In this document: piece after piece, positions 6,450-60,010 of the stretch
How the letters are laid out: every line of letters begins with the position of its first letter
Numbering within the stretch: position 1 is the first letter of the stretch
Source of the DNA: Cyanidioschyzon merolae
Taxonomy: Eukaryota
Assembly (NCBI GenBank): GCA_000091205.1
Contig: AP006502.2
Direction: 5' to 3' (one strand)
Length of the DNA: 64,000 nucleotides
Made by a program: the position numbers and the translations under genes
The notes under the pieces: model-generated
Databases searched by the model: none
What the model was told of the DNA's origin: nothing
The model's input: only the letters and a program-made list of their open reading frames with translations

Positions 6450-7050
6450 TGCGGAACGCGTGCCAGCCCATGATGAAACCAATACCGGAAGGAAAATCCG
6501 TGATGGTGAACAAGTCGGAAAGGTCGGTGCTTCTACGCTTCCCTCGCACACAGCGGTAGCATACGCTCTGCTGGAAGCGATCGCTGCAGTGGTTGCAGTC
6601 CGACTCCAACACCCTCTTCCATGCAATCAGAAGAGACAGGGGCATCTGCGAGTATATCCAGTGATCGGCGTCATACTGTCATCGAAAGCACTTTCGTCGA
6701 CAGTCACGAATAGAATGGGGTATGTCTTTTCTACGGAATGGACCATTCGGCATGACGCGTTCCTTGAATTTGCGGTTTGAGCTTGAGAAGACATCGTCCA
6801 GGAACAAGGGCGAATATTTCTCCTCATTGATGCATCCGCGCGCCTTGCTGCGACCTCGATTTGCCTTGAAACGAAAAGATCGACAACTTGAAGAATGCGT
6901 GATTTGGACACGCTACACCTAACCAGAAGGAGAATATTGGAGGCTTCTTCGTATGCATCCGCGAATGATAAGGGTTATTTAGTGTGCACGTGTTCGAGAG
7001 CTTCGCGTATTATCTTGATTCCGGTGCGAAAACAAATTCCAGCGGCAAAA
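6450..7050 (+). repeat. Dispersed repeat family R, copy 1 (boundaries approximate)
   Basis: Shares blocks with the copies at 11.3, 48.3 and 58.6 kb. One block is ...tcatactgtcatcgaaagcactttcgtcgacagtcacgaatagaatgg..., similar to 59566-59612. Another is gccttgaaa(c/t)(g/a)aa(a/g)agatcga ... cgtatgcatccgc. No strand or frame is conserved as an ORF between copies. Confidence 0.55.
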
Positions 7051-8524
7051 CGTCGAAGGGCCCGCTTCGAGTAGGCGACTGAGAATCCTCGAACGACGTG
7101 TGGAAACCCAATGCCTTATTGCTGCACATGGAATGCCCACGTCGCACATCGGAAAAAAAGTTCAGAAAAAAGCACAAGGCAGGAATGGCACAAGCAGCTT
7201 AGTGTTCCATTTTTTATCCCATACGTGTGCAGACAGATCCACAACTGGTGTTTCGGTGGCTGCTTCGGTACTTTGAACGAACGAAGCGGTGAAACCGACC
7301 TGCTGCAGACCACCTAGATGCATACGGAGAACGCTCCGGAGGCACGAAAGCATCGCATATGTATATGTATATAGTGCATCAACGAGTCAGGCGTGGTCAT
7401 TGCGTAAACTTGGTTGCATGGATTCCTCGTTGCTGGATGCGCTTCCCGGACGGGTCCGCACAGCGCGTTGCATCTGTACTTGCATAGGGTCGCGTTGCGT
7501 CCTGGCGACCGTGTGGTGCTTGTAGTTGCAGCTTGCTACCGGTTCCGCAATAGGTCTGCAACACCTGGAAAGCCCATATCGCTAACCTGAGGGTCTGGAA
7601 GGTGTAACCGTTGTCCACCAAGCTCCGTTGCTCCGTCTGCCAGCATCAGCTTCACGGAACCGGTGAGAATTCGAAGAAAATGAGACTTGATTTCCGACGC
7701 TTTCATGCTCTCCCTTATAAGGAACTCTTGTAGCGAGGAGCGCTTTCGAACCACTGGTCCGAGAATCGCACGAGTTGCGAAAGTGTTCATCATTAAGAGA
7801 AACAAACTGCAGCGTCGTCGCGAAAACGAGCTGCATATCGGAAGAAATGCCATGATAGGATTGACCAAGGATTGTTGCTAGCTGGACGCCGGGAAGACGG
7901 TACGGGCGAGTGGAAATTCTTCTCCTCGAACAAAACGATGCGCACCTTCGAGTTCGTTCATTTTGAGACTTGTGCCCTGCATCCCAGGACTGTTCCTGCG
8001 AACACATTAGGTCAGTGATGGATGTTTAATAGCGCCAGTGGATATTCTGACCGCGCATGGAAACAAGTATGTATAGAATGCTGCGAGTAATCACCTGTGC
8101 GTCAAGGAAAATAATGATGGTGCCGTGATTTCTCGTGTTCGAATCATCATCATCAGCAGCAGCAGTAGCAGCAGCACTACTTATAGATGCACGCTCATGA
8201 ACGATTACCTGAGCATCATGGAAAACAGCATTGGTCCACGTTGCCCTGCATTGGAAGCATCATCAGTCGATGCGCTGCGAATAGACGCACGATCACCAGC
8301 AGCGTAATCAAAGCAGGCTGCTCCATCACCGAAAAGAAAGTGCGCTCGCTTCAGCGGTCGCGAGGCGAATCGCAGCTGCGTGACGATATCCGCGTTGCCC
8401 GACTTGCTAACCATTATGGATTTGAACATTTGCACCTCACACTGCAGAAACGCTCGGCGCTCCATTTGAACCTTTTTTGGCAACGAGATAATCGCCATGG
8501 AGTGCGAGCTTCTGTCGACCTAGT

Positions 8525-10885
8525 TCATGGTGAAGCGCCTGCAATCTGTGCGAGATTCGCATGACAGTCACGCTCAGAAGGGAGTGCATCACGCTCAGAG
8601 GCAGCTGTTGCTACCTTTGACGTCAACGCATCAATCTGCCGAAACTGCCACGGCCAGCGAATATTATATAGAAAAGGCCGCAGGTCAAAGCGATTGTCTT
8701 CGGGGCTGTAATTCTCACAGTGTACACTTGGCGTAAGCACCGTCATCTTATGGCGATTCACTGAATACATTCGAAAGAAGAACTTCACCTTCTCCGCAAC
8801 TTGCGACGGCGATAAATGCGCCTTCCACAAACGACTTAGCCTTTCGTACATGGAGACGGGTCCACAGCGCCCAATTTTCCGCAAACGCCCGTATACGGTG
8901 AGTTCCGCATAGGTCATGCCCATATCGGCCTCATCCGTCTGGACATATTCGCCAGTGATGGGTTCGAGTTCGGCGGTTGGCGGCGCCTCCACGACCTGCT
9001 GGAGGGTCTCGAAACCCAGCTCGTGCACCGCCCAGAGGAGGAAACGACGTAGGTCGTGCTTGGAGATGCCTCCAATAGGATTGATATCCGCAGAACTGGC
9101 ATCGTACTTGGTGAGATATCCACGCAGGGCCTCGTCGACGTTGGCGGATCCGAGCACCAGCAGCGTTCGCTGGCCATGGCCGCGAGCCCACGGCAGCAGC
9201 TGAGCAAAGAGATAGCTTAGCACCATTCGTATCCGCGCCTGAATATTCTGGAGTGCAGCATTTTCTACCGCGCTCCCGCCTTGGACTCGAAAACGCGGTC
9301 TCTCACCCGCAACCAGCGTAAAGACGCTGAGCACTGCAGCAACGACCGCATCGATCGGCAAATCCAGATGATATGCTCCAATTTCTTTCGCCAGTTGAGC
9401 TGCGCGTTCCCGTGTGGCTCGGCTCGAGTTCTCGCTCCGCATGTAAGCTGTATGGAGAATTCGAGACGCAAACTCATGAGCGTCCCGAGGAATGTACGCA
9501 TCTGCTGCGTTCTCCGTCAATTCAGCATCCGTACCTAATCCGAGAATGCGACGCGCCTCCCTGATGACGTGATCATTCCGCTGTTGGGCCTCGACTGCTA
9601 CCAGGCGACACATGGACGCCACAATCGTTGCCGTCGCTGAGCTATCTGCACCGCCACTCAACGGGAGAAAGAAACCGCTCGCGCCACTTCTCCGCAAATA
9701 GTCCCAAAGCCAACACGCCGGTCCATACGCGATCTCCTCCTCGGCAGAGAGCAACCGTACCGGCACTGGTTGACTCGGCATGTACTGCAGCTGCTCACCG
9801 TCAGAGAGAACAAGCCGGAACGACCTCTCCGATGGGTCAACAGAAGCCGGAACAGCTCGTTGCGAAGCGTCGCCAATGAATGCTGGACTGAATGCGCATC
9901 CCGTTGGCATCCCATCGATCCGTCCAGCGATATCCTCATGCCGCAACGATACGCTACGGCCTGCAGCATCGATGCGCGGCACGGGCGCCGTCGACGCTGC
10001 CTGAACGCCACGGCTGGCGATCGCGATGCGGTACGCAGTGATCTCGTCGAGATCGATGGTTGCGGTAATCACTTCAACTTCATCAGCGATTGAGAACTGT
10101 GACGCTTGGGCAACAATCTCACCGTTGATACATATAAGTGCACATCCATCGTAGTAGAGCCGTCCACCATCGCAACCCTGCTGGTTGGCGTAGAGGTAGG
10201 CACCGCCGCCTTTAGCCGTTGCACTTCGCAACAGATCGATACGTTGGTTTAGTTTCCGCAGGTTGTGATGCGACCCACTCCCATTACCGATGATATCACA
10301 GCCATTGAGGCTGTAGCGTATATGAGGAGCGTCCGGGGTGAAGAGCTCTTCACAGGTCTCGCTGGCGACAACCACGCCGCCGATATCGAGCAACGCTTCG
10401 CCGAAGAGCGTTTCCGCTTGCGCACCAGCTGCGACTTGACGAACACAGTCTGGGAGCGGGTACTTTTCAAGTGCTCGTCTACCATTGGCCGGCCATGCTG
10501 TAAACCAGCGAGACTCTCGATAGTTCCCGTCGTCTGCTAGAGCGAGCTTGGGTCGAATCAGAAGGATCCTGCGGTTCAGGAGCAGCACACGACAGTTGTA
10601 GGCTACGTGTCGGTGGAGAACAGGTGCACCCAGGTCGACCAGGATGTCATCTGTGTAGCCTCTCGCGATGATCTCCGCAATAACCTCCCAGCTATGGACG
10701 AAAGTGTCCGGCTCCAGAAAGTGATCCTCGCACCCGTAGCCACTGACTTCTAGTTCTGGACCGAGACGGTAGCGTGCTCCAGCCTCTCTGGCCCGAGCAA
10801 TCGAGCAGCATATTCGCTCCAGGTTACCAGCAAAATCCAGTGACCACTGGTTCAGGTTACAAGTCGCCACCCGAACAAGTCGCAT
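8525..10885 (-). CDS. Glutamine-dependent NAD+ synthetase (N-terminal nitrilase/CN-hydrolase domain plus C-terminal NAD synthase domain)
   Basis: The 786-aa ORF starts MRLVRVATCNLNQWSLDFAGNLERI (CN-hydrolase). The P-loop SGGADSS is later in the same ORF, and WPWQFRQIDAL lies near the C-terminus. This is the typical eukaryotic Qns1/NADSYN1 architecture. Confidence 0.85.
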   Translation of the reverse strand: MRLVRVATCNLNQWSLDFAGNLERICCSIARAREAGARYRLGPELEVSGYGCEDHFLEPDTFVHSWEVIAEIIARGYTDDILVDLGAPVLHRHVAYNCRVLLLNRRILLIRPKLALADDGNYRESRWFTAWPANGRRALEKYPLPDCVRQVAAGAQAETLFGEALLDIGGVVVASETCEELFTPDAPHIRYSLNGCDIIGNGSGSHHNLRKLNQRIDLLRSATAKGGGAYLYANQQGCDGGRLYYDGCALICINGEIVAQASQFSIADEVEVITATIDLDEITAYRIAIASRGVQAASTAPVPRIDAAGRSVSLRHEDIAGRIDGMPTGCAFSPAFIGDASQRAVPASVDPSERSFRLVLSDGEQLQYMPSQPVPVRLLSAEEEIAYGPACWLWDYLRRSGASGFFLPLSGGADSSATATIVASMCRLVAVEAQQRNDHVIREARRILGLGTDAELTENAADAYIPRDAHEFASRILHTAYMRSENSSRATRERAAQLAKEIGAYHLDLPIDAVVAAVLSVFTLVAGERPRFRVQGGSAVENAALQNIQARIRMVLSYLFAQLLPWARGHGQRTLLVLGSANVDEALRGYLTKYDASSADINPIGGISKHDLRRFLLWAVHELGFETLQQVVEAPPTAELEPITGEYVQTDEADMGMTYAELTVYGRLRKIGRCGPVSMYERLSRLWKAHLSPSQVAEKVKFFFRMYSVNRHKMTVLTPSVHCENYSPEDNRFDLRPFLYNIRWPWQFRQIDALTSKVATAASERDALPSERDCHANLAQIAGASP

Positions 10886-11279
10886 CTTCCGTGCAGCGCT
10901 CGCTCTGGAGCACCGGACGTCCAGTAGCGAGGGTCGTCGCCTTGAACTGCACGCCGTTCCGTTCCTCTGCCGGACGGGCGAGCGTCACCGAGCACACCAG
11001 AGCAGACCTAGAATGCTGGACTACACGAATAGAACAAGAGATTCCTGGCGATATCGTCGGTTTGCAGCACAACAGCAGTATTGGCAACTGCGCAGCAAGT
11101 CAGTATGGTGTACGCGCACGAAAACGAGCGAGCGTCCCCGGGAACGTAAACTTGTCGTCCATCACCAGGGTAGAGACGAGCTGTGTTTACTTGGTATATG
11201 TTTATGTGACGCCGTCAATCATGTCCATAAAATGCTTATCTGGGGCGTAGCTTCGGGTCTGTATGTCTAGAGGCATGCG

Positions 11280-12050
11280 GTCACGGGAGCGAAAACGTTT
11301 CGCGACCATGTAGGGTGCATGAATAGCTATCCGCAGACGCTTTTCAGCGTTTTTTGACCGGCCCGCAGCTATCCGCTTCAGCTTCTACTTGTGTTCTTTG
11401 AACCTGAGAGGCTACCCCACGAAGTGAGATTGCGTCAGCTCCACGGGTCTCGTCTTCAGCATCGCGTATCCTATGATATTGATGGCGGTGTTGAAGCCTC
11501 TGTTCACGAACTCAATGCGTTTATTGCCTCTCGTCACAGCTTGTATTGTGTCGAATATTCAATTCGAAAGACGAATGAGCCTCTCTTTGTGGTCATCAAC
11601 GAAACTGCATTCCGTAGCAGCATGATACCGCTGACGGGATTTGCCACAGTACGCTCCCGTCTTTTCTGTTTCCAGCGATAAGAGCCTGGAACTTGAGTCA
11701 TCGCAGCGATCGCTTTTGCCGGGGCATGCGTCACCGCTTGGAACAAGGCGAGCGTAGACGGATCGATATTTTTCGATCTCTTCTCCAATCTGGATTTCCT
11801 TTCCGCACTTGTTTCATCACGCACAACATCGCGTTCCATAACACCCCTATCGAATGGAACAGCGTGGGCTTGCCCAGCGCGAACAGGCAAGCGTTCACGC
11901 GCCACAGAGCAACCGTCTGAGGAGCTATGGTGAACACGTACCAAGACCTGACCTCACTCAAGTAGCAATGATGCGAATGGTGCACCGATGCTGTATAGCA
12001 AGAAGATGAAAATGACGAGCAGAGCGTAGATCGCAACCTCTCGCCCGTGG
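11280..12050 (-). repeat. Dispersed repeat family R, copy 2, inverted relative to the other copies (boundaries approximate)
   Basis: The reverse complement of 11820-11865 (gggtgttatggaacgcgatgttgtgcgtgatgaaacaagtgcgg) matches 59345-59390 (cttgtggaacgcaatgttgtccttgatgaaacaagtaccg). Neighbouring blocks are also collinear with the 59 kb copy. Confidence 0.55.
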
Positions 12051-12547
12051 TTGAAATGCATTGACAACAGTTGGACGCGTCGAAATCGGGTCTTGAACGC
12101 GGCCATCAACATCAAGCGGCTGCTGAACATGGAGTTGGATAGAAACGAGCGACTGGCGTATTTAAAGCTGGGTGTAAGAGAGAGGAAAAGGAAACGATTG
12201 CAGTAAGAACCCGCAGAGGCTGCTGTTGATGACCATGGAAAGAGATCCAAAGTCTAAAGTGTCCGCCCGTGTTGGAAAGCCCGTTCCATTTTATTCTGAC
12301 GTGCGTATAGCGTTATATCCTGCGCGAATGCAGGTCTCGTGCGACGCTCCACAACAAGTTATGGAAACCCGTCGGCATATGGTAGGCAGAGCCAAGTTCC
12401 ATGCCGTGCCTCAACATCATTCGAAAACTTGATCCCAGTGTCTTCGCGTCTGCACGCTGGTGGCGAGTCGCTTGTTGCTGACGACCTCTTCAGATCGTGT
12501 ATGCCATCAAATGCTGCTGCTGCTGCTGCTGCTTGCCTGAGCGCAGC

Positions 12548-14842: not shown

Positions 14843-16284
14843 TGCGAAGCGTCAGCGCATCCCAGGTTCTCGGGATGCGAATGCGAATCCGACGAGTTGC
14901 TGGGGCAGGGCTCGTCTGCCGGAGGCAAGCACTGCACGCTCGAAGGCGAAACTTGGAGACAACCTCGGGAGAGATGATTCTGCGGGAAAAATATGGATCG
15001 TGGCTGGTGGTCTCTCCAGGCATCGTGCGGTATGATGGGCACTCTCCCGTCCACGAATCAAATCGAGTGACTAGAGACTCCGGCTCGAGGTAAACGACCC
15101 CTCCAGAAAGAATCCGCAGAAAAGATGAGATTTGAGCATCTGAAACAGGGAGGAAGAGCTTTTGCGAGATATCCGGTCAGCGCAGTCGCTTTAGAATCGC
15201 AGAAAACCCCGAGTGGTGCCTACAATAGTCGCCGCACAACTCGATCTGTATCGAGGACGTTTGTTTATCCCGGGTTCGCCGTCTCAATTCCCTGAGCAAG
15301 CGAACAGGCCACCAGATTCTCCGATGCCCAGCCGTGAAACACAGAGGCCAATTTGTGTGTCTGTCGTCTTGGAATTCGGCAGGAGCTTTCGGTCATCTGG
15401 ACAGAGGTAAGGAATCGAGCGCTGTGGTCAACCGACGGCGAAGCGTCTTGTTTGTGGGAGCACCTCTGACGCTGACCAAGACAGAAACCCGCAATGATCC
15501 GAGAATTTCCGCGACCTGGATTCGAATGCATCTTGTGACCTTCCAATGTTTCAAAGTGTCTCTCAGCACCACTTCGTCATAACCTCTCTCGAAAGAGAAG
15601 ATGTTCGATCCGGAATCCGGTGATATGCGCGGGATTCCATAGCGCTGACGTTGAACAGGGACGGTTCGCGATCGACCCAACAGGAGAGGTCGCTGCTGAA
15701 CACGATCCTACGGGGCAGGTCGCCAGTGTCTATTTGCGAGGCTAGGACCCGCGTAACGGTGGTGGTCCGAACGGTATCGACACAATAGATCTTCGCTCCT
15801 GCAGCTTGTTTCTCGACTTTTCAAGACCAGTTGAATGCGTTTACCCGCCCTGAGACCAAATATGATGCAACAGATGTAGTCGCCGGCGCTTGGATGCGAA
15901 TCGGAGACACCTCTTTCAGTGACGGTACCTGGGGTTTCCGCACCACAGAACTTCGTTCACACATAGCTTGTTTGGAGACGTTTCAAGACTGATTAAATGC
16001 GTTTACCCGCATTCAAATGCAACCGGTGACGTGTGCACTCACGTTGCCGAGACACGTTTGTTCATGAGATAGGTAAAAGTGCCGACAATTCACCGACGGA
16101 TTTCACGAACAGGAGAGCTCTCCACGTACATCTCAAGGCATGCGCAACATTCTCTCCCCAACGCAAAAAAACCCGTTGCGACTATGGACAAATCCGGCCG
16201 ATCTGAGTGCTCATCTGGCTCCGCCCTGGAACTATATCACCTATGGAGATGCAGACTCACACGGCATCTTTGCCCGAGGTGTGC

Positions 16285-16878
16285 CTAGGAGCGCTTCGAG
16301 TCCGTTGTAGCTGCTGTCGGATCGGCGGACTTGAGGCTCTTGAGCTTCATTTCTTCCTTTTGTTTCTCCTCCTTCTCCGCATCTGCTAGGCTCGTCTCAA
16401 GGCCTTCTTTGAACTCCGAGGAGGCCCGCTTCAGGTTGCCTGCGAGCGTTCCCAAGTTCCGCCCAAGCTCGCCAATTCGTGAAGGCCCCCAAATCAGCAG
16501 CCCAACACCCGCAATAACAGCTATCTCCGGCCATCCGAGCCCAAACAAGCCCATTTGCAAAGCGCTAGCTGCACTAGGTCTCGTGCAGTGGCCGGCTCGT
16601 TCGGGGAGCGCGCGCGTCTCCTGAAGCTGCCGTCGCTGCGCCGCCCTGCCACGACGTGACTCGCGAACTAGACTTGCCGCATTTTTCAAGCAAAAAGAAG
16701 AGCAAGAAACACTTTCGTGCAAGTGTTGGTTTGTCTTTGATAGCGACAGCACGAACATTGCCAGTGTGTATGTCCGAGGCACCTCGAACACCAGAGAGCA
16801 ATCCGAAGTACGCTGCGCAATGCGTTTCCAGAGAATCGATGGACGGGTCCAGCGCAGGCGAGGCACGTCCGCCAGCAC
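16285..16878 (-). CDS. tatA: Twin-arginine translocase TatA/Tha4-type subunit precursor (N-terminal extension plus TatA core)
   Basis: The core MGLFGLGWPEIAVIAGVGLLIWGPSRIGELGRNLGTLAGNLKRASSEFKEG (from about 16554) is a TatA/B signature: TM helix, hinge, amphipathic helix, acidic tail. The preceding roughly 108 residues would be a transit peptide if the ORF start at 16878 is used. Confidence 0.7.
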   Translation of the reverse strand: MLADVPRLRWTRPSILWKRIAQRTSDCSLVFEVPRTYTLAMFVLSLSKTNQHLHESVSCSSFCLKNAASLVRESRRGRAAQRRQLQETRALPERAGHCTRPSAASALQMGLFGLGWPEIAVIAGVGLLIWGPSRIGELGRNLGTLAGNLKRASSEFKEGLETSLADAEKEEKQKEEMKLKSLKSADPTAATTDSKRS

Positions 16879-18354: not shown

Positions 18355-18388
18355 TGCTGGTGCTGGTGCTGGTGCTGGTGCCGGTGCC
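18355..18388. repeat. (CTGGTG)n hexanucleotide microsatellite
   Basis: ctggtgctggtgctggtgctggtgccggtgcc. Confidence 0.85.
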
Positions 18389-19623: not shown

Positions 19624-19677
19624 GAACGCGACGCCCATGGGTTACCGCTTGCACCCACGGAACGCGGATCCATGTTC

Positions 19678-23269: not shown

Positions 23270-23489
23270 CTCGCCAGAAACGCGCGCATACGGCACAAGA
23301 TCGACATCGAATTTGGGATATCATGGTTCTTTACGGACCATATTGGACTATCGGAAAGCCTCAGCTATCTGGCTCTCATTGTCCAGAAACGCGTGCATGC
23401 AGCACAAGATCGACATCGAATTTGGGATATCATGGTTCTTTACGGACCATATTGGACTATCGGAAAGCCTCAGCTATCTGGCTCTCATT
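23270..23489. repeat. Tandem duplication, 2 copies of a unit of about 109 bp (88-bp core plus 21-bp linker), about 75 bp upstream of the TraB gene
   Basis: gcacaagatcgacatcgaatttgggatatcatggttctttacggaccatattggactatcggaaagcctcagctatctggctctcatt occurs at 23293-23380 and again at 23402-23489. The linker (c)cagaaacgcg(c/t)gcat(a/g)c also recurs before copy 1. Confidence 0.85.
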
Positions 23490-23563
23490 CGCATTGATCA
23501 TCAGCGCTGCACGAGCGCTGCAACGGATTCCCGAACGCGCTGCTGTACCGCACACCAGGCAAG

Positions 23564-36486: not shown

Positions 36487-38121
36487 AAGTCTACAAGCCT
36501 GGTGTACTGTAGCGATTGCTTGACACTACCAACGCCTCTAAACCGACTGAAAATGTTTCGTAACTACAGAATCGTTTGAAGGCCGCACGTATCTAAACTA
36601 GAAGGGAAAATGAATGTTGACATGCGTGTCGCATTTTCCGTTTCGCGCCGCGACACGCATCTGGGGCACCGACGGATGGACACGTGTCCCCGGCCAGGCG
36701 CTGGATCGCTGGCACCAGGCCTCCGCGGTATATGGCATCGTGGGCTGCCACGCTCTCGTTCGCCGTTTGTTTAGGGAAATAATTTCCGGTATCCATGTAG
36801 GTTGGCTGCGTCTGCATAGATGGATTGGTGCACTGCTTCGTTCCGGGTTCTTGCTTCAATGTGTATTCCCTGTCCTGTGTCTTCTGGGCCCTGATTATTT
36901 TTACATCGAAAGTGTTCAGCGATAGATCACAGCTTACGTTCAGCGTACCGTACGATTCCATGGATATTTCGCTGGACACCGAGGCGCTGGTCGCTTCGGA
37001 CGAACCACACATTACCTGTTATTCATTGAAGTGCTCAAGTCGAGGTAGGGAAAGTGCCTGCGTGCATCGTTGCTTTTGGAATCGCGCGATAGCAAGCTTC
37101 TCACCATCGATTGTCTCGCTAGCGGACGCTCGGTTATACAACCGCACACGAATCTCGTGCTGCTCCACCTCTGTTTTAGGCTCGTATCGTTTACCTACTT
37201 CAGCGCGCGCCTGTGCTCGTGATGTGTGGATGTCGTCCTGGACGCATCGATGGGAATTGTGCAGCTTGGACTCCTGCACTCGTTGAGCGCTTTCATAGCG
37301 GCAGCAGGATTGCGGCCCTTGGAAGCCAAACCACGACTAGCGCCGTAGGCGACAACCAGACCACGTGACATATCGGTTGTTTCGCTTTCCAACTTTACGA
37401 GCAAGTTCAGGAATGCACGCTTCGTACTTCAGTGCAGTTGAAATCGTTACCGACCTCAGCATTGCTTCGTGTACTCCTGTGAAAGATCGTCTGCTTGAGG
37501 CATTTGGAAGGTGATCTGCGCTCTGTATGAAGCGCACAAAAACATTCTCCTGTGCGCGATACGGCGTTGAGCGCATCCAGATGCGTCCGAACGCCGTCGT
37601 TCCTCTTGTTGGCCTCGCTCTTGGCCTCCAGTATACCCAAGTTTGGATCATATCAGTTTAGGAAAAAGTTGATTAGCTTCATCAGCTTTCCTTTTCAGCT
37701 CATTGGTTCCGTCGATTTGATTTAATGCTACGGTGACGGTGACGTCGCATCGAATCTGGGAAGCAGCGAACGTACGCTATCGACAAGATAGCGATGCAAC
37801 GAGGAGCGAGCTCCCCCGGCTTATCACGAGTCCAGCGCCTCTTATTCTCTGCCAGTACCTGCGCATGCCCCGAAGCGTGACGGGAAAGTGTTCGCAGCAA
37901 ACGCTGGTCAATACAGGTCACTCGTCTAAGTGCCACAAGTGTCAGCATTGAGCGATCATCGTCATTGGCACGCGTACGGCGTCAACCAAGTGCACTACGC
38001 AAACGGACCGGTTACGCAGTGACCGCCAGCAGCTGAGCAGTCCCTGAGCCACGCCCATACGTTCTTCGACCTGTCTGCGACGTTTGGCAACCAGCGGGTG
38101 ACGCATCCCGTTGTAGCCTGG

Positions 38122-47618: not shown

Positions 47619-48299
47619 CAAGTGCAACGTTCGGGCGTTTATCGCTGTGAGTCCGCTGCATTCTGCTGGATGTTCAGACGCTTTTATGGTAAAAAAGTGC
47701 AAATACAGCTGATCAGGTGGGTCCAGTACGCGCCCCAAAGCAGCCTGGTGCCAAGCGCTGCGTCGCCGACGAAAGCGACGCCTGGAAGTAAGTGCAGCGT
47801 TGCTCCGGCGGACGCGTCAGTCGCCTGCTCTGGTTCAGTTCCGCGTCTGGTAGACAGTGCCGTACTGGCGCTGTGGACGAGGCGTGCGGCCTCAAGCGCT
47901 TCGAGGTCAGCGTTGGTATCGCGACAGGAGAGTGCGGGCGAAATGCACTTGTGTTCGTGAAGCACAGACTTGATGCCTACACGCCCGTGTCAGCATCGAA
48001 TGGAGCGGATGCTTTTTAACTCGGGCGTGCTCGTTCATGTTTGGATGTCTTCCAATGGTACTCTGTGTAAGTTTGGGGGGCTTTTCGTAGGCTGCTTCCG
48101 CTCCCTCTTTTTCATCAACGATATTCGAGATGCCGTTCGCTCATGGGCCTCTGGCTCTGATGCCTGCAGTGGCGGTCACCTGGTGGTAGCGTGAACGATC
48201 CGATATCGATGGTTTCCGGCCATTGCAGACACGCTGGATGCATAGGCAAAAGTTACGATCTGCACATTTCCTCGCAAGTTCCGTCGCCTTTACATACAG

Positions 48300-49270
48300 C
48301 CTCGGTGCGCACTTGACAATGGTGACACTCGAATATAAGCTGAGGACTTCCCGTGTGCCTACCAGAACGCATTCTTCACTGAGTTTCATCCCGCGGCAGA
48401 TGACGATCTACTTCATCGCTGGATCCATGCGTTTCATGGGAAACGAGTTTTCCGTCGATGCGCTCCTCGGTTTCAGTGCCCGATGCGGTAGCGTATGATT
48501 ACGCGCTTTTTTTCGGAGGCAATTCGTTCCATGAGTACGCTGTCAGAGGCGCGCGCTGAGGTCCACTGTTCCATTCGATAAAGCAGTCGCGTAACGCGAC
48601 GTTGTCCATACCGAAACAAGCACCGATAGTTGAATCCAGTCTGGAGAAGACCAAAAAATCTGGAGCAGTCTACGCGCCCTTGCTCGAAAGCAGTGGCACA
48701 CGCTGCACTCGAAGCGATCGCTCCAATGACTCAGGTCCGAGTCCAAGATCCTTGTTCATGAAAACCGAAGCAACCGGGAGCCTTTGGATGCATATCTCGT
48801 GAAAGGGACGATGATGTTCTCGAATGCCGTTCCTTGGATGGCCATCAAGAGATATAGAAAATCGCCTTTTGAACGAGATGGATGATTCAACATCATATGC
48901 TCTTTGAATGTTCGGCATGATACCGTGAGCTGGTTGTCAAAGTACGCCGCAGATTGTTTTCCGTCGCTATTCCAGCGACCTCCGTTGCAGCGCCCGCAAC
49001 TTGTCTTGAAGCCGAAAGATAGAAAGACTTTCATGTTCGGTTTGAGCTTGCAGCTTATGAGGAAAGAGGAAGCACGGATGCTTGTATTTATGAATCGAAT
49101 GATGATATCGATTATTTTACGAACGCTTGTTCCGCGGCACTGCGGATCACATCTCGATTCTGGTAACGTAACGAGCTCCAGCAGCAACGTGTTGAACGAG
49201 TATTCCCGAAAAGAAAACGATCGAGCATCGTGAAACTCCACATGCATCCGCACGCCCGTTTCGCTACGCG
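48300..49270 (+). repeat. Dispersed repeat family R, copy 3 (boundaries approximate)
   Basis: 48717-48745 (atcgctccaatgactcaggtccgagtcc) resembles 59478-59508. 49087-49130 (gaatcgaatgatgatatcgattattttacgaacgcttgttccgcggc) resembles 59851-59897. 49246-49262 (cacatgcatccgcacgcc) resembles 59989-60005. Confidence 0.55.
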
Positions 49271-49759
49271 TCGGATATTCAGGCTGAACATGAAAAATAG
49301 TTGGGGCAAACATCTCAAGGCGGGCACAGCGCGAGCAGTCCAGTACTCCATTTTACATGGACCCCGTGAGCAGACGCTCTCCTCAGTGCGGATATCTATC
49401 GAGTTATCGGGGATTACTGGCCACCATCAACGTCCTGTCGATTACAAGAAAAAGCACAACTACGAGCGCTGTTTTTCCTCTGGCACATTCTATTGGTCTA
49501 TCCGTTTTGAGATAAATTCTATTCGACCCGAATACCGGGATAGCTCGCGTCGCTGCTGTTCGTGAACACAGCTTCCGCAGGTCCCTCTACCCATGTATCG
49601 CTCGGGTTACCAGAGCGTACTGCACGCTCCGTAGTGACAACGAAACATATAGACAGGCTTCTGTTTGTAGTTCATCTGGTCTCCTAATCAACAGTCCAAA
49701 CTCCACGGGAACGAAGCGCTTTATCAAGGATACTCGAGAGAGCTGCTGACCACCACCAC

Positions 49760-49790
49760 CACCACCACCACCACCACTGCCGGGACACGA
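49760..49790. repeat. (CCA)n microsatellite
   Basis: accaccaccaccaccaccaccaccaccact. Confidence 0.9.
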
Positions 49791-49832
49791 CTGGTGTCCC
49801 GCTGGCCTGCTCCGCTGCCGCCCGCGGTGGTG

Positions 49833-52001: not shown

Positions 52002-52190
52002 GCGACTCGGAAAGCGAAGCTGTTGCAGCGGCAGAGGCAGTGAGCGCCCACTGGGAGCCGTCCAAACACCCACTGGGAGCTGGCGGATGCTAGGAGCCCA
52101 CGGACTCTCGACTCCTCTCAGAGCGAGTACGCTTTGCAGCAGTTCACAAAGTTGTATGTGTCTGCTACGGCGCTCACAGCCCTCGTTCGT

Positions 52191-52191
<1 letters not shown>

Positions 52192-52226
<35 letters not shown>
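52192..52226. repeat. (CAG)11 microsatellite
   Basis: gcagcagcagcagcagcagcagcagcagcagcagt. Confidence 0.9.
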
Positions 52227-52229
<3 letters not shown>

Positions 52230-52608
52230 AAACGTGAGCTTCGGGTCGACTGCTCCGCGCCGAGCCAGGTGCCAGCTGGTGTAGGGCACTGCACGAGGGT
52301 ACCGTTTCGTAGCGCCGAAGCGTGCCCCAACGCGTTGTCGTTCGTGTCATGGACACTGCTACTGACGAATCAAGCACGGATCGGGCGTCCGTGCGCAAGA
52401 GATAACGATTTCTCATGTGGTATAGCGACTGGCACCGTTTGCTGGCCAGGTGCACCCTGTCGGGGCAACGAGGTGCTTCTGGACCTGGTGTTCGCGGGTT
52501 GCAAGCCCGGTTCACTCGGCGTCACAACGAAGCGAGTTTGTGACTGCACTGCAACACGCAAGTGGTGGGAGTGGAACAGCTTAAAATCAAGCGACGATGT
52601 GCATTCCT

Positions 52609-53955
52609 TTAGTATTCTTCCTCTTCCTCGTTGGTGTCTGCTGCGACTTCGATGTAGTCTTTCTCGAGCGCGGCGAGGTCCTCACGCGCTTCGCTAAACT
52701 CGCCCTCCTCCATTCCTTCACCAACGTACCAGTGCACAAAGGCCCGCTTGGCATACATGAGGTCGAACTTGTGGTCGATGCGCGCGAATACCTCAGCGAT
52801 GGCTGTTGAGTTGCTCACCATGCAAACCGCACGCTGCACCTTGGCGAGGTCACCATTCGGAACGACCGTGGGCGGCTGCGAATTGATACCAACTTTGAAA
52901 CCGGAGGGGCACCAGTCCACAAACTGGATGCTACGCTTGCTCTTGATCGCTTTGACAGCGGAATTAACATCCTTAGGCTGGACATCGCCGCGATACATCA
53001 GACAACAAGCCATGTACTTGCCGTGCCGCGGGTCGCACTTGGCCATCATGTTGGCGGGATCGAAGGCAGCTGAGGTGATTTCGGCGACGCTGCCCTGCTC
53101 GTGGTGAGCTTTTTCGGCGGATATAACTGGCGCATAACTCGACAGCATGAAGTGAATCCGAGGATACGGTACTAAGTTGGTTTGATACTCGGTCAAGTCC
53201 ACGTTGAGCGCGCCGTCGAAACGAAGCGATGCCGTCAGCGAAGAGATAACTTGGGCGATGAGGCGATTCAGATTCCGATACGTTGGCCTCTCGATGTCCA
53301 GGGATCGCCGACAGATATCATAGATAGCCTCGTTATCGAGAAGCACGGCCACATCCGTATGTTCCAGCAGCGCGTGGGTGGACAGCACAGAGTTGTAGGG
53401 CTCCACTACAGCAGTGCTGACTTGTGGCGACGGATACACTGTAAATCCGAGCTTGCTCTTCTTTCCATAGTCCACCGATAAACGCTCCAAAAGGAGCGAG
53501 CCTAGACCGGATCCAGTGCCTCCGCCAACTGAGTTGAAGATCAGAAATCCTTGCAGCGCAGAGCAGTTATCCGCCAGTTTTCGTATGCGATCGAGAGCCG
53601 TGTCTACTATCTCCTTCCCTACAGTGTAGTGGCCCCGAGCGTAGTTATTGGCAGCATCCTCACGCCCGCTCATCAGCTGTTCTGGGTGGTACAGCTGGCG
53701 GTAAGGGCCGGTGCGCACCTCGTCTACAACAGAGGGCTCCAAATCCAGGAACAAGCAACGAGGAACATGTTTTCCAGATGAGGTCTCAGAGAAGAAGGTC
53801 CCGAAGGAAGCGTTATTGGCAGCTGCGATCGCCGAGTCGCGGCTAGCCATCGTGCCGTCGGGAAGGATACCATGCTCTAAACAGAAGAGCTCCCAGCAGG
53901 CGTTCGCCACCTGCACACCAGCTTGTCCTATATGGAGTGATATAACCTCGCGCAT
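52609..53955 (-). CDS. TUBA: Alpha-tubulin (complete, unspliced, 448 aa)
   Basis: [30 protein letters not shown]...GGGTGSG...[107 protein letters not shown]...EEEEEY. Alpha-tubulin is collinear throughout, including the acidic C-terminal tail ending in Y. Confidence 0.95.
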
Positions 53956-54254
53956 GATAGATTGTATTCGTTGTGAAGCTTTTCAGACACTAAACACTCA
54001 CCAGAGGCGACTATTCACCGAACCTCCGTCGAATGGTTAGGCAGCACGAAAACTCCAAACCGGAACGCTGAAAAATGGCGCGGGATATTCGAATAGCAGA
54101 CACCTGACGCGTTTCGCCGTTCAAAAATCGAACGCCGCGGCCCGCGGTGTGCAGGAGTGGCGATCGGCGCGCCCTAGACATAACGCCTCCAACTGATGTG
54201 CAGACGCCTCCCAGCCTTTTGGACCGGCCAGCCACTACTGCTTCCAATCTTGTC

Positions 54255-56530
54255 TCATATAGTTCCACCTTGGGAGATTGTCCAACAAAGTTCCCTCTCA
54301 TATACTCTGGAGGGACTTCTTTCCATTACCGCAGATTTCCGTATCTTGATAGCGGTGTTAAAGTCTCGGTTCACAAACTCCATCCGTTTCTTGCCATCAC
54401 TGGTTGTACATACTAATGCAAGTAGCCCTCGAACTTTCGCCCTCCTTTCCATTGGCTCTTCCTTCAGCGGTCCGTACTTTGTGAAATCCTCAGGGCTCCG
54501 CTTACACTTTTCCATCTCTACGCTCTGAAGTGCGCACCTCAGTTCATGGTGTGTATACGACGCACGGAACTCGTCTATTGGTATCATAACGAAACGCCGT
54601 GCACACTCCTTGTACGTTCTTGTCGACGGAGCTGGCGTAGTTCCTTTTTCGGCGCCCAGCGCCCTGTCCCATAGGCTACAACGAGCGTCTGATTTTCATC
54701 CATCTTCAGGGCGCTCAACTGATGGAAAAAGTTCGCGAATGCACGCTGCTTCCCACAGCATAGATTCATTCGCAAACGAGCCCACCGAGGCTTGGTATAC
54801 TCCTCCTACAGTGCACCCCAATGCGCAATGCGAACTTCCATGAATTTCCGAAAAGCTTCAAAGTCCGCTCCTCGGCTAGTCACCTCGCTCAAAGCTTCCA
54901 GGATCTCTTTCATTCCTGAATTCCAAGTCTCGATTTTCTTCCTTGCATTCATTATACCCGATTCTGGGTAATATCTCGCTCTCCACAACCTCAACAGACG
55001 CATGTCTTTCTGACGTAAATTACCGTCGGTCCCATCTTCCGCACGCTTCGGTGCTGCGATGGTTATGATATTCGTGTTTCCGGGGTCCGCGCCAACGACA
55101 AAGTCGTTCTCATGCACTTTCTGCGCCGCAGGACCCGCCTTCTTGGTTTATTCATGCTTCTCCGCGTCAACGACAAGGTCGTTCTCATGCACTTTCTGCT
55201 CCGCTGGACCCGCCTTCTTGGTTTATTCATGCCCCGCCGCGCCAACGACAAGGTCGTCATCCTGCACCCCCTGCGTCGCAGAATCCTCCTCTTTGTTTTC
55301 TTCATGCTCCGCCGCATCAACGACAAGGCCGTTATCCTCCACCTCCTGCATCGCAGGACCCGCCTCCTTCTCATCTTCATGGTTCGCCGAGGGCGGAACT
55401 GGACGATCTTTCTTCAACCGCCGATAGTGTACACACTTGGCTACTCCATCGGTCTCGATCATCCCAGTGAACAACTTTTGCTTGCTCATTCTCAGACGTT
55501 TGAAATTGAAGATATTCTTCCAGTGCGTCTCCCGGTTTTCGCCGGTGAAGTTCTCCCTGCTAACAGTGAACTTCGGGCTGATCTCCTTCATGATGCCGTA
55601 GAGGACTGTGGAGTCGATAGTCACGATATGTGACTTGATGTTGCACAACGAAATGACGTTGAAGCGCTTCTCCATTAGGAAGGCCTTCCGTCTCTCCCAC
55701 TCTTCATTGTTTTCCTCACTCAGCTTCATCTCCGCATTGCATTCGAGCTCTCGATCCTAAAACACGAAATAGCGCAGGACGAGGCGATAGTATCTTCCCT
55801 TATCTTTTTTCAACTCTGATATCTTGTCTGTTGGATTCGCCAACCCCAAGATCGCGCGGTGCTCTTGCATAGCCGCACGGATTACAGAAGATTCATTCGT
55901 GCTCCTGCGTGACTTCTTCTTGTCGACGAATTCGATCTCATGTTAATGCTTGCGATCCTTCGAGATGCCATTGATAATCGCCCATATTCCTTTGCGAGAG
56001 ATGCCCGGGCAGAGTGCAAATACGGTGCGTATCATGAAACGTTCGAGGTTCATTGTGAAATGGTTCTTCAGGTTCGTGAGGTACTTCATCACTCCGTATA
56101 TGTAAATATCCCAGTAACCCTTGCATCGAGTACTGTTGAAGCTGTAAAAGGGATGATTTTCGTGGAGGCCATGGACTAGCACATTTTCCCGCCGCGCTTC
56201 CTCTGTACCAAGCATCAGCTGACGAATAAAGGTCTTATCGAAAAACTCGTCCGGAATCTCGACCGTTTCCATGTGCATCACATCGCGATACATCTCCCTC
56301 GCCAAATGCATCAGTCCTGACGACGCCTTGACAATACTCTTGGATTACGAGTCGACACGTTTTTCGATAGCGTCTCGCAACTTTTCCTTACACGGATCCT
56401 TGATATGTCCAAGAAGAAAGGTTTTTACCACCTTTTCGTCGTACAGTTGTCGTCCTTGCCGCTTACGACGTAGGGCCTCCCCCTTTGGGTTCTCCTTCTC
56501 TTCCTTTTCTTCTGGACTCAGCACTGTTTT
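54255..56530 (-). mobile_element. Copy A of a TnpB/Fanzor-like (RuvC-fold, OrfB_IS605-type) element; ORF fragmented by frameshifts and carrying an internal 75-bp minisatellite
   Basis: The minus-strand ORF pieces 55943-56311, 55223-55729, 54806-55117, 54584-54775 and 54255-54587 are collinear with the plus-strand ORFs of copy B (62750 onward). They contain ...[21 protein letters not shown] (RuvC-I-like D in a GxDxGxxN context) ... LVVAYGTGRW ... ALVCTTSDGKKRMEFVNRDFNTAIKI. The last segment matches a degenerate zinc finger plus the RuvC-III motif RDxNAAxNI of TnpB/Fanzor. Reading 56312-56530 on the minus strand gives a further coding-like N-terminal stretch that is absent from copy B. Confidence 0.5.
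55085..55390. repeat. 75-bp minisatellite (about 4 tandem units) embedded in copy A of the TnpB/Fanzor-like ORF
   Basis: Unit ...caacgacaa(a/g)gtcgttctcatgcactttctgc(g/t)ccgc(a/t)ggacccgccttcttggtttattcatgc... has a period of 75 bp (the motif caacgacaa recurs at 55094, 55169, 55244 and 55319). It encodes an acidic 25-aa repeat (..[26 protein letters not shown]..) that is absent from copy B at the corresponding position. Confidence 0.8.
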
Positions 56531-58599
56531 TTGTTTTTTTTTCTAGCAGCCGGCGACCCTGGGCCTCCAGGATCGTGGACTTGCTTTTTTCATAACTTTG
56601 TTTTTTTGTTTTTTTTTGAAAAACAACGCTCTTTGAACCCTTCTGTTATATATTTCGAAAAAACACTTGACTAGACTTGTTTGAAGTTCTAAACAAAAAT
56701 CAACTGAAAGACTATACTTGGCTACGACCTGAACGGAAATCTGACGTTTACAGCTGAACAACACGCTGCTGGTCAGGATCGCGTTTAACTTCAACGGCGG
56801 CATCCGCGTCGCGTCTCCTGCCTGGCTGAATCTCCCAGGTGCGCAAATCGACAGCACTATTTAGAACAAAGAAAAGAGATTCACGACCAAAAAGCAAGGA
56901 TATAACGGATTCTTTCGTCCTCTACGATAAACGATAAAACAGGGAAAAGTTTTCCGTACTGTCGCAAGTCCTCCTTCCAGGCGGAAAGTTCCGCGAGCCT
57001 GACGAGTCTCCCAGACTCGTGCTTCGTGCTCCCCCCAATGGCAGGTCTTGAAGCGAGACCTCGGCAACTCGTCTGGAATGCAGTTTATTCCAAGATCGCG
57101 AGTGGCTGGAGTGCGTCTGGTCGTCGCCCTGATCGTCGTTTTCTTCCAGCAAATTGCATGGCTCCGTTGCAGGCAGCAAGTCTGTCTGCGCAGTTGCCAA
57201 ACTCCCAGGAGAATGATGAATCCCAGGCCCCGTGTCGGCTGAACCACACCTCGAGCCGATGCCCCCAGTGATATGACAAAGTTATTCTGTTCCCGTGCTG
57301 AATCCGGACCAGCAGTATAGGCTCTGTTGCTGCAGGCGCTCGGGGCAGGCGCTCGGCACACCATAGAACCTACGAAACGACCATCGCATCCGAGAGAAAG
57401 CATGGATAATGGAGCTTAAAGGTAGGGTGGAACATGATAGACACTCTTTCGATCACCAATATCCATCCCGCAATCTAGGAGCCGTGGTCCATGAAAACAT
57501 TCTGGAAAACACAGCGATCTGTGGATTTGAGATTTGCGCATACACTGCCGCGGATACCTTGACGCGTCGCCACGGCGATCGATCGGAACATAGAAAGCAC
57601 AGGTGCCGAAAAGTATCACAAATTGGAAAGGGAACCATTTTCAATCGTTCAAGATTGACCAAGAGAACGACTTGTTGTCGAGTGTTGTCCTTCTTTTTAG
57701 TGGCTACACAGCTGTCGCGGAACCGATAAATCAAGAGGATGCAGCCAAAACCCTCAACGAACGCAGATGCGGTAGCCCAACTGTCTGAGAGCTCCGAATC
57801 ATCGATAGCCGGGCATGATGGACGGCGTGAGGCGTACGATCGAGTAGGATGGCGAGGTCAGGACCCGTCTCGATGCTTTGGGTTCCTTTCCGATGAATGA
57901 GGACATTTTCTGCGCCTTATTTCGAGCGAATATTAGCGTCCAACTAGCGAAATCGGACAATCTCCGGCTGGAGTGCATGACATCGTGCACGGGACGCCAA
58001 CGGTATCCGCAGTGCAGAGACAACAAGCGTGGATTCAAGTGTCTGCTCAATATGTAGGAAATAGAAATGACGAACATGTCGTGTCGTTTGGTCGAGGCCC
58101 GTGGCTCTGGAGGTGCTGCAACGCGCTGAACCTGCACTTTTGCTCCGTCGACCAGCGCGCACAAAGTGTGCAGGAACTGAATCTTTCCATCTCCCATCGA
58201 TGCAATCCAGACGATTTGAGCGCATCACGAGCACAAGGGCACGTTGAGCGTGCTAGACGACAACAGCAACATCGTGAAGCAATGACGAATGCACCAGATG
58301 ATGGAAAGTTAGTTGACCATCCGTTTATGGCGAGGCAGTCGAGGGCAAGAGACTTGCGATGATATGACTCTCCGCGCAACAGTACGCGCCATGACTCGAT
58401 GCGTCGTGACTGGAAGGCTCCCATCACGAGCGAGGGATGTCTCGTGCTTCCCGGGCGGACGTCCGTCGGCTCGGTATCCAGCGAGCTTTCGCAGGAATCG
58501 TTTCGTACCAAGCGTGTGCGTTGTGCTGCGATGCGGAAGACTTGCGCTCACGAAATCAGTGCCTGGGAGAGGGTCATAGATTCCCGTCTGGCTCAAGGC

Positions 58600-60010
58600 C
58601 CTGGCATGATACGGGGTCACCAATGCGGCAAGGCTGGTGCGTTCTATGCATACATCGGGAACGGTTTCCCCGGTAATCGGTGACCAAGAATGGTGCCATA
58701 TCATTCAGTAGTACTGAATATTGGTATATATAGGCAGAACGTTTCACCGTAAACCTCTGATGGATTCCTAAAGCAACGTCAGACTGAATCGGATCGGGTC
58801 CGTTCAGATAACCCGAGTGTTTACGCTCAACATGAGGGTCTCTTCTCCTTGTCATCAACATGAGCGTTTTGCGCGCTTCCACTGCGAATGCTTCCTTTTT
58901 CTCTCGCTTATATGCGGTTTTCAGTGTGCCGGTCTCTACGATCCCTCCAGCTCCGATGTCAGCTGTTGGGGAGAGTTCATGAGAGCGTGTGAGTCCCGCT
59001 CTCGTCGCTTCCTGCTGTTGTCGACGCATTGCATGCCGAGGCTCAAGTACGATCTACATATCGATTCCCATTTTCACCGTCTTTGTAGATAGCCTTGATG
59101 CGCTCTTCGCAGCGCTGTTCATTCACTGAGCTCAGGTGCTCCCATCTGTCCACCGAGTTTGCTTCTCAGAGCATTGCCAACCTCTATAGTGTTCGAAAGC
59201 TTCGTTCATCTCGTTCGATGCCGTCCTCCGTTTCCGCGCTCGGTGCCGTACCGTACGATCATGAGCAACTTCTGTATGAAAACTACGGCGACTGCGCTGT
59301 CCTCTGCACGTGGGAGCGCGCGCTGTTCCATGAAAGCCCGTACTTGTGGAACGCAATGTTGTCCTTGATGAAACAAGTACCGAGAAGCAAAATCCAGGAT
59401 ACAGAACATGATAACGAATTTCGATGTTCCGGCGCCCCGTTCGAGCTAAGCGATGCTGCACGCTCCACTGGAAACAATCGCTCCGATGAATCTAGTCCGA
59501 GTCCGAGACGCTCTTTTATGCAAAGAGCAGAAATGCGAGCTTCTCGCAACGTATCATAGGAGAAGTATCATGCCGTTGTCGAATGGCGTCTTATCGATGG
59601 GAACAAAGATGGAAAAATCTGATTTTTTGAACGGAACAGATGATTCGACTTGACAAGTTCCGTGAAGTTTCGGCTTATACTTGTGACCGAATCGTTCACG
59701 GACGACCTCGAGTATCTTTCCTCGTCAACCTAGCGGTGCAAAGGGCTGCACCCATGATTTGCCTTGAAATAAAGAGATCGAATCCCTGAAGGATTTGTGA
59801 TATGCGCGTGTCTCACATAAAGAAAAGAGATGGGCGGAGGCTTTGCCTCATGAATTCGATGATGATATCGGTAATTTCACGAACCTTCGTTCGGCGGCGT
59901 CGCCAAACATCCTGAATCCGGTGACGTAACAAAAGCCAACGGCAAAGCGTCGTAGCGGGCACTTCACCACTGAGAACGCTGAGCCTACGTATGCATCCGC
60001 AAGCCCTTCG
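58600..60010 (+). repeat. Dispersed repeat family R, copy 4 (longest copy; left boundary uncertain)
   Basis: See copies 1-3. This copy contains all shared blocks in a single orientation and has an extra roughly 140 bp between the gccttgaaa and cgtatgcatccgc blocks compared with copy 1. No ORF is conserved across copies. Confidence 0.55.

Follow-up and report, generated by a model that had tools for sequence, protein, structure and literature searches.

The stretch analysed here, 64,000 nucleotides of the Cyanidioschyzon merolae 10D nuclear genome (contig AP006502.2; hereafter, the window), carries long, intron-free open reading frames (ORFs) for a DRMBL-domain protein, NAD synthase, a radical-SAM/TRAM enzyme, a TFIIS-like factor, PGI, and tubulin. 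Between these ordinary eukaryotic protein genes lie four copies (c1 to c4) of a dispersed repeat family, here called R, which in all probability descends from a mariner-type transposon that carried a Fanzor1 gene. None of the ORFs that overlap R is an NCBI-annotated C. merolae protein.

An earlier note, made from the letters alone, had recognized four homologous, dispersed segments between genes, with the second copy inverted, and these observations have held. A self-comparison of the window with blastn returned collinear high-scoring segment pairs (HSPs) among the four regions (64 to 84% identity, 53 to 332 bp, E 1e-5 to 8e-15) and bore out the inversion of c2, a MAFFT alignment runs collinearly through all four over ~1.4 kb, and an nhmmer profile built from 16 R copies outside the window matched exactly these four places. 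The alignment yielded a spaced motif of 19 bases that is present in all four copies and in 0 of 100 shuffles. The copies are longer than the note implied, with c1, c3, and c4 measuring ~1.35 to 1.39 kb, and its 70 to 80% identity applies to the best blocks only, the global values being 51 to 59% between copies and 68 to 74% to the family consensus. The strings quoted in it are present: a 40-mer at 59343-59382, which reads GTCFIKDNIAFHK on the minus strand and falls in the DDE remnant of c4; GATGAAACAAG at 11808 (-) and 59367 (+); atcgctcc..agtccgagtcc at 48717 and 59477; and cgtatgcatccgc at 6950 and 59988, a weak example, as these two sites are not at collinear, homologous positions within the element.

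The sense strand of R is the minus strand for c1, c3, and c4 and the plus strand for c2 (Table 1). Both ends of c1, c3, and c4 carry degenerate terminal inverted repeats (TIRs), as does the 3' end of c2, which is 5'-truncated (it starts at model position ~480, the first ~480 bp being absent) and has a secondary internal deletion of ~130 to 140 bp after 11873, ~35 nt downstream of the junction described below. Stops occur in every frame of every window copy (the note had seen no reading frame conserved across copies), and tblastx HSPs between the copies fall in every frame, as neutrally decayed DNA gives.

Table 1. Copies of family R, their parts, and other features of the window (HTH, helix-turn-helix; TNB, zinc ribbon domain)
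Feature	Position	Strand	Remarks
R copy c1	5841-7232	-	full length, model positions 5-1390 of ~1392; nhmmer E 1.5e-250; 74% identity to family consensus
c1 5' TIR	7204-7229	-	CACACGTATGGGATAAAAAATGGAAC, consensus CACCCGTGTCAGATTAAAATGGAAC; mapped from consensus
c1 transposase start codon and HTH region remnant	6828-7149	-	mapped from consensus
c1 DDE_3 catalytic core remnant	6445-6713	-	first Asp (consensus AIDETAF) to second Asp (consensus FIMDNIAFHKS)
c1 deletion junction	~6430-6448	-	junction alignment and mapping from consensus
c1 Fanzor1 remnant	5897-6448	-	last ~180 codons; translation, tblastn, consensus TNB match
c1 TNB zinc ribbon and RuvC-III motif	6029-6211	-	EHLTTLECHRC...LCMKC...HRKLHAAINI
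c1 3' TIR	5842-5866	-	mapped from consensus
R copy c2	11545-12310	+	inverted vs other copies; nhmmer 11545-11873 E 2e-77, 11887-12310 E 4e-72
c2 DDE remnant	11583-11845	+	mapped from consensus
c2 Fanzor remnant	11842-12257	+	mapped from consensus
c2 TNB	11942-12125	+	...NRVLNAAINI
c2 3' TIR	12283-12307	+	mapped from consensus
R copy c3	47982-49361	-	full length; nhmmer E 3.5e-201
c3 5' TIR	49345-49369	-	mapped from consensus
c3 HTH remnant	48968-49291	-	mapped from consensus
c3 DDE remnant	48583-48851	-	mapped from consensus
c3 Fanzor remnant	48034-48586	-	mapped from consensus
c3 TNB	48164-48350	-	mapped from consensus
c3 3' TIR	47982-48006	-	mapped from consensus
R copy c4	58768-60118	-	full length; nhmmer E 4e-241
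c4 5' TIR	60095-60119	-	mapped from consensus
c4 HTH remnant	59726-60040	-	mapped from consensus
c4 DDE remnant	59340-59610	-	mapped from consensus
c4 Fanzor remnant	58826-59343	-	mapped from consensus
c4 TNB	58960-59141	-	mapped from consensus
c4 3' TIR	58771-58795	-	mapped from consensus
CMe-1A copy	54115-57504	-	blastn; complete, reading frame broken
75-bp x 3.8 tandem array in CMe-1A Fanzor ORF	55087-55369
CMe-1A copy	62342-64000	+	without consensus positions 423-1398; runs off window end
Decayed CMe-1-like Fanzor1 relic	36988-37530	-	stops; 27-39% amino acid identity to CMe-1p (range for the three relics)
Decayed CMe-1-like Fanzor1 relic	57737-58231	+	as above
Decayed CMe-1-like Fanzor1 relic	11325-11528	-	as above
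Alpha-tubulin ORF	52609-53955	-	identical to BAM83431.1/XP_005539467.1

Further copies came from a metagenome collection, which was scanned once with the 19-base spaced motif and yielded 55 loci, most of them in a small number of hot-spring metagenomes. An nhmmer search with the four-copy profile, followed by clustering, reduced these to 20 distinct copies, among which the four window copies are represented by their strain orthologues. Several of the metagenome contigs are ~99% identical to the window and therefore represent C. merolae strains. The extra copies lie on other contigs with different flanks, and pairs of R copies within 10 kb of each other are frequent on metagenome contigs. As a lower bound, the genome-wide number is at least 18 to 20 distinct copies. 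Of the 16 extra copies, 12 were ascertained through the exact 19-base pattern, which spans the junction, and the other four are bystanders without the pattern on the same contigs; hence, the 14 copies with the motif do not make up the whole family. The MAFFT alignment gave a trimmed 20-copy consensus of 1382 bp, to which the copies are 62 to 77% identical (~55% pairwise).

Two gene fragments joined in the family consensus

A consensus of ~20 copies recovers protein homology that single copies do not show. Pfam searches with single copies (all three sense frames for c1, c2, and c4, a single frame for c3) gave no TnpB or DDE match, and a word-indexed protein search with a 114-residue ORF of c1 returned no candidates; a weak Mutator-like Pfam match in the zinc-finger region of c1 (E 0.003) was treated as noise. 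In the 5' half of the consensus, one frame with a single stop reads MYSLD...STLCRW...FVAIDETAF...VIAAIASSG...CFIMDNIAFHKS. Pfam DDE_3 matches this frame with 35.9 to 37.7 bits (cut-off, 28.6; E 2e-9 to 8e-9), weak HTH_33, HTH_Tnp_Tc3_2, and HTH_32 matches lie upstream of it, and the NCBIfam IS630 transposase model NF033545 is matched with an E value of 5e-18 over profile positions 20-237 of 299. Furthermore, Smith-Waterman alignment with the mariner transposase of PUl-1 scored 93, compared to 36 ± 5 for shuffles (z 11); tblastn of the PUl-1 transposase on the R consensus gave no match, and this homology came from the Smith-Waterman comparison with shuffles. The DDE_3 match extends to profile position 93 of 146 with a query that stops at the junction and to 117 of 146 in the frame read through it. 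A complete DD(E/D) triad is absent, the match stopping right after the second Asp (FIMDNIAFHKS), and the frame itself stops 33 codons past the junction. With an HTH and DDE_3 transposase and TIRs in its consensus, R belongs to the IS630/Tc1-mariner superfamily, as a non-autonomous member because the transposase match ends before the third catalytic residue.

The 3' half of the consensus, in another frame, reads ILYRMEQRAL...KKPVIVGYGTGRGNGGG...PVKGMYRAMK...EHLTTVKCHRC...RLCMKC...HRDLNAAINILRLL and runs to a stop; its zinc ribbon and RuvC-III motif are contained in EHLTTVKCHRC...RLCMKC...HRDLNAAINI. Here, Pfam's Cas12f1-like TNB domain matches with 28.5 to 32.1 bits (cut-off, 26.3), and NCBIfam guided_TnpB matches at the C-terminal end of its profile (E 2.8e-4). 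Smith-Waterman comparisons with the C-termini of eight published Fanzor1 proteins gave z scores of 8 to 22, with the best scores for Chlamydomonas and Chlorella (chlorophytes, 104 to 136) and the lowest for CMe-1 of C. merolae (76, z 8). The published Fanzor/TnpB signature is D-X(125,275)-[TS][TS]-X-X-C4 finger-X(5,50)-RD (PMC3627910), and the consensus satisfies the part from [TS][TS] to RD. At the level of translated single copies, c1 retains both CxxC pairs with RK replacing RD, and c4 keeps RD (...RERDSHALMN). Full-length relatives of 680 to 800 residues match R in a profile search only in their last ~190 residues (best, P0050, 756 residues, E 4e-70); the homology starts at the equivalent of residue ~548 of 756 in P0050, and R does not have the RuvC-I motif GLDPG of P0020, P0050, and P0051. 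R thus carries a fragment of a Fanzor1 gene and not a complete one. Two other ways of reading the element were rejected. The opposite strand as Fanzor sense, with DETS taken as a DE..TS motif, was ruled out by the CMe-1p and consensus analyses. Consensus frame 1, open over ~390 codons, was considered as Fanzor coding sequence reaching further upstream and dismissed because the upstream part matches the transposase in frame 2 and because, on that side of the junction, R and independent Fanzor1 genes no longer agree.

The two parts meet at a common junction. Transposase homology ends at DNIAFHKS, and Fanzor homology (LYRMEQRAL) begins within a few codons in a different frame; 19 of the 20 aligned copies pass from ...FIMDNIAFHKS to ILYRMEQRAL... 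without a large gap, two of them ending ~270 nt downstream. On the transposase side, R is missing the last ~60 to 85 residues, the third catalytic one among them; on the Fanzor1 side, the first ~530 residues are gone, and RuvC-I with them. Four less decayed, independent metagenomic Fanzor1 genes (P0020 [L060], P0050, P0051, and P0057) are 65 to 76% identical to R just downstream of the junction, and their DNA similarity to the R profile starts ~20 to 80 nt downstream of it, at model positions 804-863; upstream of the junction point, they carry unrelated Fanzor sequence with the GLDPG RuvC-I motif. In one metagenomic copy, P0016, a 1-nt indel fuses the transposase stub and the C-terminal Fanzor fragment into a single ORF of 188 residues; this chimeric ORF is accidental and not the ancestral state of R.

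At the termini, the TIRs of the consensus, ~25 bp long, match at 22 of 25 positions (5' end, CACCCGTGTCAGATTAAAATGGAAC; reverse complement of the 3' end, TACCCATGTCAGAATAAAATGGAAC), and TA stands exactly at the inferred terminus in 9 of 26 ends, with several more offset by 1 to 2 nt.

An element with both genes intact was found on a 46.5-kb metagenome contig (ENA ERZ25071359 ctg27810; L066). At 5020-8150 (3131 bp), it has the order TA-TIR-DDE_3 transposase (310 residues)-Fanzor1 (P0063, 686 residues)-TIR-TA, with both genes on the same strand and overlapping by 8 nt. Its TIRs of 34 nt (5013-5046 and 8125-8158) are 76% complementary; the layout opens with TA|CACACC, and TA stands on both sides. 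Unlike R, this element is complete, with both ORFs open; no complete relative closer to R was found. Its transposase is aligned by the R transposase consensus from Met1 to residue ~248 of 310 (score 271, z 44); convincing similarity ends at the DN..HK motif near L066 residue 225, and the L066 region PAYSPDFNPIE has no counterpart in R. The Fanzor consensus aligns with the last 158 residues (529-686) of the L066 Fanzor1 (score 329, z 59). The TIRs of the two elements are weakly similar, sharing a terminal CAC(A)CC and an inner AATGRAAC (0 to 13 of 1,000 shuffles reach the observed score). At the DNA level, L066 is distant, and nhmmer with R matches only the 3' part of its Fanzor gene. With tblastn, the intact L066 Fanzor1 finds c1 at 6217-5954 (residues 599-686, E 5.5e-6) and c4 at 59144-59049 (E 0.005) in the window. 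Given the intact layout of L066, R corresponds to that architecture minus ~1.83 kb. The neighbours of the L066 element (PriCT_2, a D5_N/DUF5906 primase-helicase, and Endonuclease_7) constitute a virus-like context. A related Fanzor1 gene of 692 residues, without an adjoining transposase, lies at 3330-5408 of L064 (JGI 3300028368), next to RNA_ligase, 2H-SAK, and Peptidase_S74, which is another virus-like setting.

Origin, spread, and decay of R

Our data make it very probable that the R copies are old, neutrally decaying remains of a class II (cut-and-paste) transposon, a non-autonomous one from the IS630/Tc1-mariner superfamily, founded by a single internal deletion in a two-gene Fanzor1 transposon. 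Homology of both halves, TIRs, enrichment of TA at the ends, a junction common to the copies, an intact relative with the predicted layout, and neutral decay are all observed. The parent would have been a transposon of ~3.1 to 3.2 kb with the order TA-TIR-transposase (HTH and DDE_3)-Fanzor1-TIR-TA, and one internal deletion of ~1.8 kb, taking the final ~85 transposase codons and the initial ~527 Fanzor1 codons, would have turned it into a founder of 1382 bp. The founder would have kept the 5' TIR and transposase codons 1 to ~235, followed by the out-of-frame junction and, downstream of it, ~180 codons from the end of Fanzor1 with the RuvC-II strand, the TNB zinc ribbon, and RuvC-III, a short 3' untranslated region, and the 3' TIR. 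As neither protein fragment of R can be active, we infer that the founder was mobilized in trans by the transposase of a full-length partner acting on the retained TIRs. Copies would then have inserted at TA sites in intergenic DNA and become fixed, and the autonomous partner would since have been lost from C. merolae.

Several points weigh against this reading. No autonomous partner or intact R-type transposase was found in the window or on the C. merolae-like metagenome contigs, and database matches to the R transposase are ORF fragments of 132 to 205 residues only. L066 is to be seen as a cousin and not as the parent because its protein identity to R is only ~35 to 45%. Individual window copies fall below the Pfam thresholds, and the classification depends on a MAFFT consensus of sequences that are ~55% identical, in which the placement of indels is uncertain. 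The TA duplication appears as a statistical enrichment, demonstrated at no single locus. Conservation and spacing within the 52-nt motif block are biased because 12 of the 16 extra copies were found through the exact motif; however, the same junction spacing is seen in the four window copies and in three of the four bystanders without the pattern.

We considered it very unlikely that R is a small autonomous element in its own right, decayed from a native transposase-TNB fusion or from two short genes, and not a deletion derivative. The ORF of P0016, which passes the junction in frame, and the ~390 open codons of consensus frame 1 would fit such an element. However, the two homologous parts lie in different consensus frames, and P0016 differs from them by the 1-nt indel; the transposase match breaks off at 237 of 299 (IS630) or 93 of 146 (DDE_3, cut query) positions with the third catalytic residue missing, the Fanzor part has no RuvC-I, and the Fanzor1 genes of P0020/L060, P0050, P0051, and L066 extend ~530 residues further upstream where R switches to transposase. 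Chance similarity, low complexity, or local segmental duplication as the source of the four segments is hardly conceivable: a global pairwise identity of only 51 to 59% would leave room for it, but the profile that excluded the window reached an E value of 1e-250, the at least 18 to 20 distinct copies sit on other contigs with different flanks, and they have defined TIR boundaries. Dispersal and TIR boundaries also dispose of the satellite-like unit that the earlier note had offered as one option for a family it took to be non-coding. A non-autonomous element, another of its options, was the correct one, although not a non-coding one by nature, since the 20-copy consensus restores the N-terminal part of an IS630/mariner transposase and the C-terminal part of a Fanzor1.

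The note had also asked whether R derives from the Fanzor elements of the window. These belong to CMe-1A, a 3169-bp family of ~150 copies that are each ~80% identical to the consensus and lack TIRs (PMC3627910). Two CMe-1A copies in the window, a CMe-1A-like 3' fragment adjoining c2 (11325-11528), and the distant homology of the Fanzor part of R to CMe-1p (Smith-Waterman, z 8) speak for such a descent, which we nevertheless judge highly improbable: blastn with the CMe-1A consensus found no match inside any R copy, and the R profile found nothing on CMe-1A at E ≤ 10, whereas three other Fanzor1 genes matched it at E 1e-10 to 1e-19. In addition, R has TIRs and CMe-1A has none (PMC3627910), the R consensus keeps the canonical C4 finger that is absent from CMe-1p, and R scores 104 to 136 against chlorophyte Fanzor1s compared to 76 against CMe-1. 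The suspected link to TnpB/Fanzor was therefore right in spirit, R containing a Fanzor1 fragment, but that fragment comes from a different, mariner-borne Fanzor1 transposon. A role of R as non-coding DNA, be it as a regulatory module or as a structured RNA (e.g., a scaffold resembling omega-RNA at the 3' end of Fanzor), is very unlikely. In its favour, R keeps the Fanzor 3' end and the right TIR, the place at which TnpB/Fanzor systems encode their guide RNAs, and a distance of 148 bp separates c1 from the DRMBL-domain gene downstream of it, whose end is at 5693. Against it, Rfam at gathering thresholds gave no match in the whole window, RNAalifold on 20 copies and both strands returned 0.0 kcal/mol in 40 of 44 windows (best, -2.1 kcal/mol), and the copies share only ~55% pairwise identity. 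C. merolae strains differ at 12.7 variant sites per kb in R, more than in other non-coding DNA (9.1), the value for long ORFs being 5.4. The structured RNA proposed in the earlier note thus found no backing. For an omega-RNA in particular, RNAalifold saw no consensus structure in the 3' part of R, where the copies are too decayed for a decisive answer. Nothing suggests a present function of R.

Within c2, at its internal deletion, ARAGORN calls a tRNA-Ala(CGC) at 11839-11913 (-). The call is probably a false positive because Rfam, its tRNA model included, finds nothing at 11750-12000 even at E ≤ 10.

With the deletion derivative as the preferred reading, one may go further and imagine R as the record of an ancient invasion in which a virus-borne, mariner-type transposon brought another, second Fanzor1 into the Cyanidioschyzon lineage. 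The derivative would have out-competed its parent by keeping the guide-RNA module (Fanzor 3' end and right TIR), exploiting Fanzor-mediated homing or soaking up the parent's nuclease, with the transposase stub, catalytically dead but DNA binding, acting as a repressor. We regard this scenario as speculative and improbable as a whole.

CMe-1A and other repeats in the window

For comparison, we took the CMe-1A consensus and protein from the supplement of PMC3627910. The two CMe-1A copies of the window are inverted to each other and flank ~5 kb that hold c4 and another Fanzor relic; in this stretch, the GC content drops to 0.49 to 0.52. Outside R, blastn with CMe-1A also matched several short fragments, of which 11333-11528 is the longest. 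Where the relic at 11325-11528 adjoins c2 at its truncated 5' end, a deletion or a nested insertion is suggested. R is a separate, older family, as there is no mutual match with CMe-1A and the CMe-1A copies here are 82 to 87% identical to their consensus compared to 62 to 77% for R.

Counted with the two CMe-1A copies and at least three relics, the four copies of R bring the transposable element (TE)-derived DNA to ~11 to 12 kb in 64 kb. C. merolae is usually described as nearly transposon-free, with "very few transposons," and the share in the window is far above that description. The window also has a 109-bp unit duplicated in tandem almost perfectly (97%) at 23274-23489, a diverged 111-bp tandem pair at 2538-2765, a 46-bp repeat pair spaced 162 bp at 15803-16010, and CAG/CAA runs (poly-Gln/Ser-type) inside or beside ORFs at 8142, 17845, 30002, and 52178.

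Relation to known transposons

R accounts for several "empty" intergenic regions of the C. merolae genome. It is relevant to annotation and TE history and not to active biology because its copies are dead. It adds a second, extinct Fanzor1 lineage to this alga, carried on a mariner-type transposon; the Fanzor survey gives one family, CMe-1, for C. merolae (PMC3627910). TE annotations of the species list Mutator, Helitron, CACTA, or unknown elements (bioRxiv 10.1101/2022.10.24.513474) and, from Ensembl, DNA, En-Spm, and hAT (PMC11050394), and the Tc1/mariner class is absent from both. The P-MITE survey reported no MITEs (transposable elements of the miniature, inverted-repeat type) for C. merolae (PMC3964958). 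R may already stand in Repbase or Dfam under an uninformative name. The virus-like settings of its intact relatives fit the proposal that viruses spread Fanzors.

Internally deleted Tc1/mariner elements and MITEs have TIRs, a TA target, no functional transposase, and mobilization in trans, and R would have worked in this way too. MITEs are usually under ~800 bp. With 1382 bp that consist almost wholly of two gene fragments, R is not a MITE and resembles one only in being bounded by TIRs and non-autonomous. Among curated transposase families, bacterial IS630 gives the R consensus its highest score, 65.6 bits, which is below the equivalog cut-off of 100; in contrast to it, R is eukaryotic, truncated, and linked to Fanzor1, with no bacterial context. 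CMe-1A (TE-N2_CMe) shares with R the C. merolae genome and the character of an old Fanzor1-related family with many decayed copies (PMC3627910), but it is 3.17 kb long, encodes a complete Fanzor1 of 734 residues with a degenerate zinc finger, has no TIRs, is younger, and shows no nucleotide similarity to R.

The closest known type is that of PUl-1 and PGv-1: Tc/mariner transposons that carry Fanzor1, together with their non-autonomous derivatives, have been described (Bao & Jurka 2013, PMC3627910). Like the inferred parent of R, they combine a TA duplication and TIRs of ~24 to 33 bp with a mariner-like transposase and, after it on the same strand, Fanzor1. PUl-1 aligns with R both in the transposase (z 11) and in the Fanzor1 C-terminus (z 11), at low sequence identity. 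R differs from this type in being internally deleted to 1.38 kb, in having no coding competence, and in residing in a red alga. Hence, according to the literature searched, the kind of element is known, and R is an addition to that kind in C. merolae.

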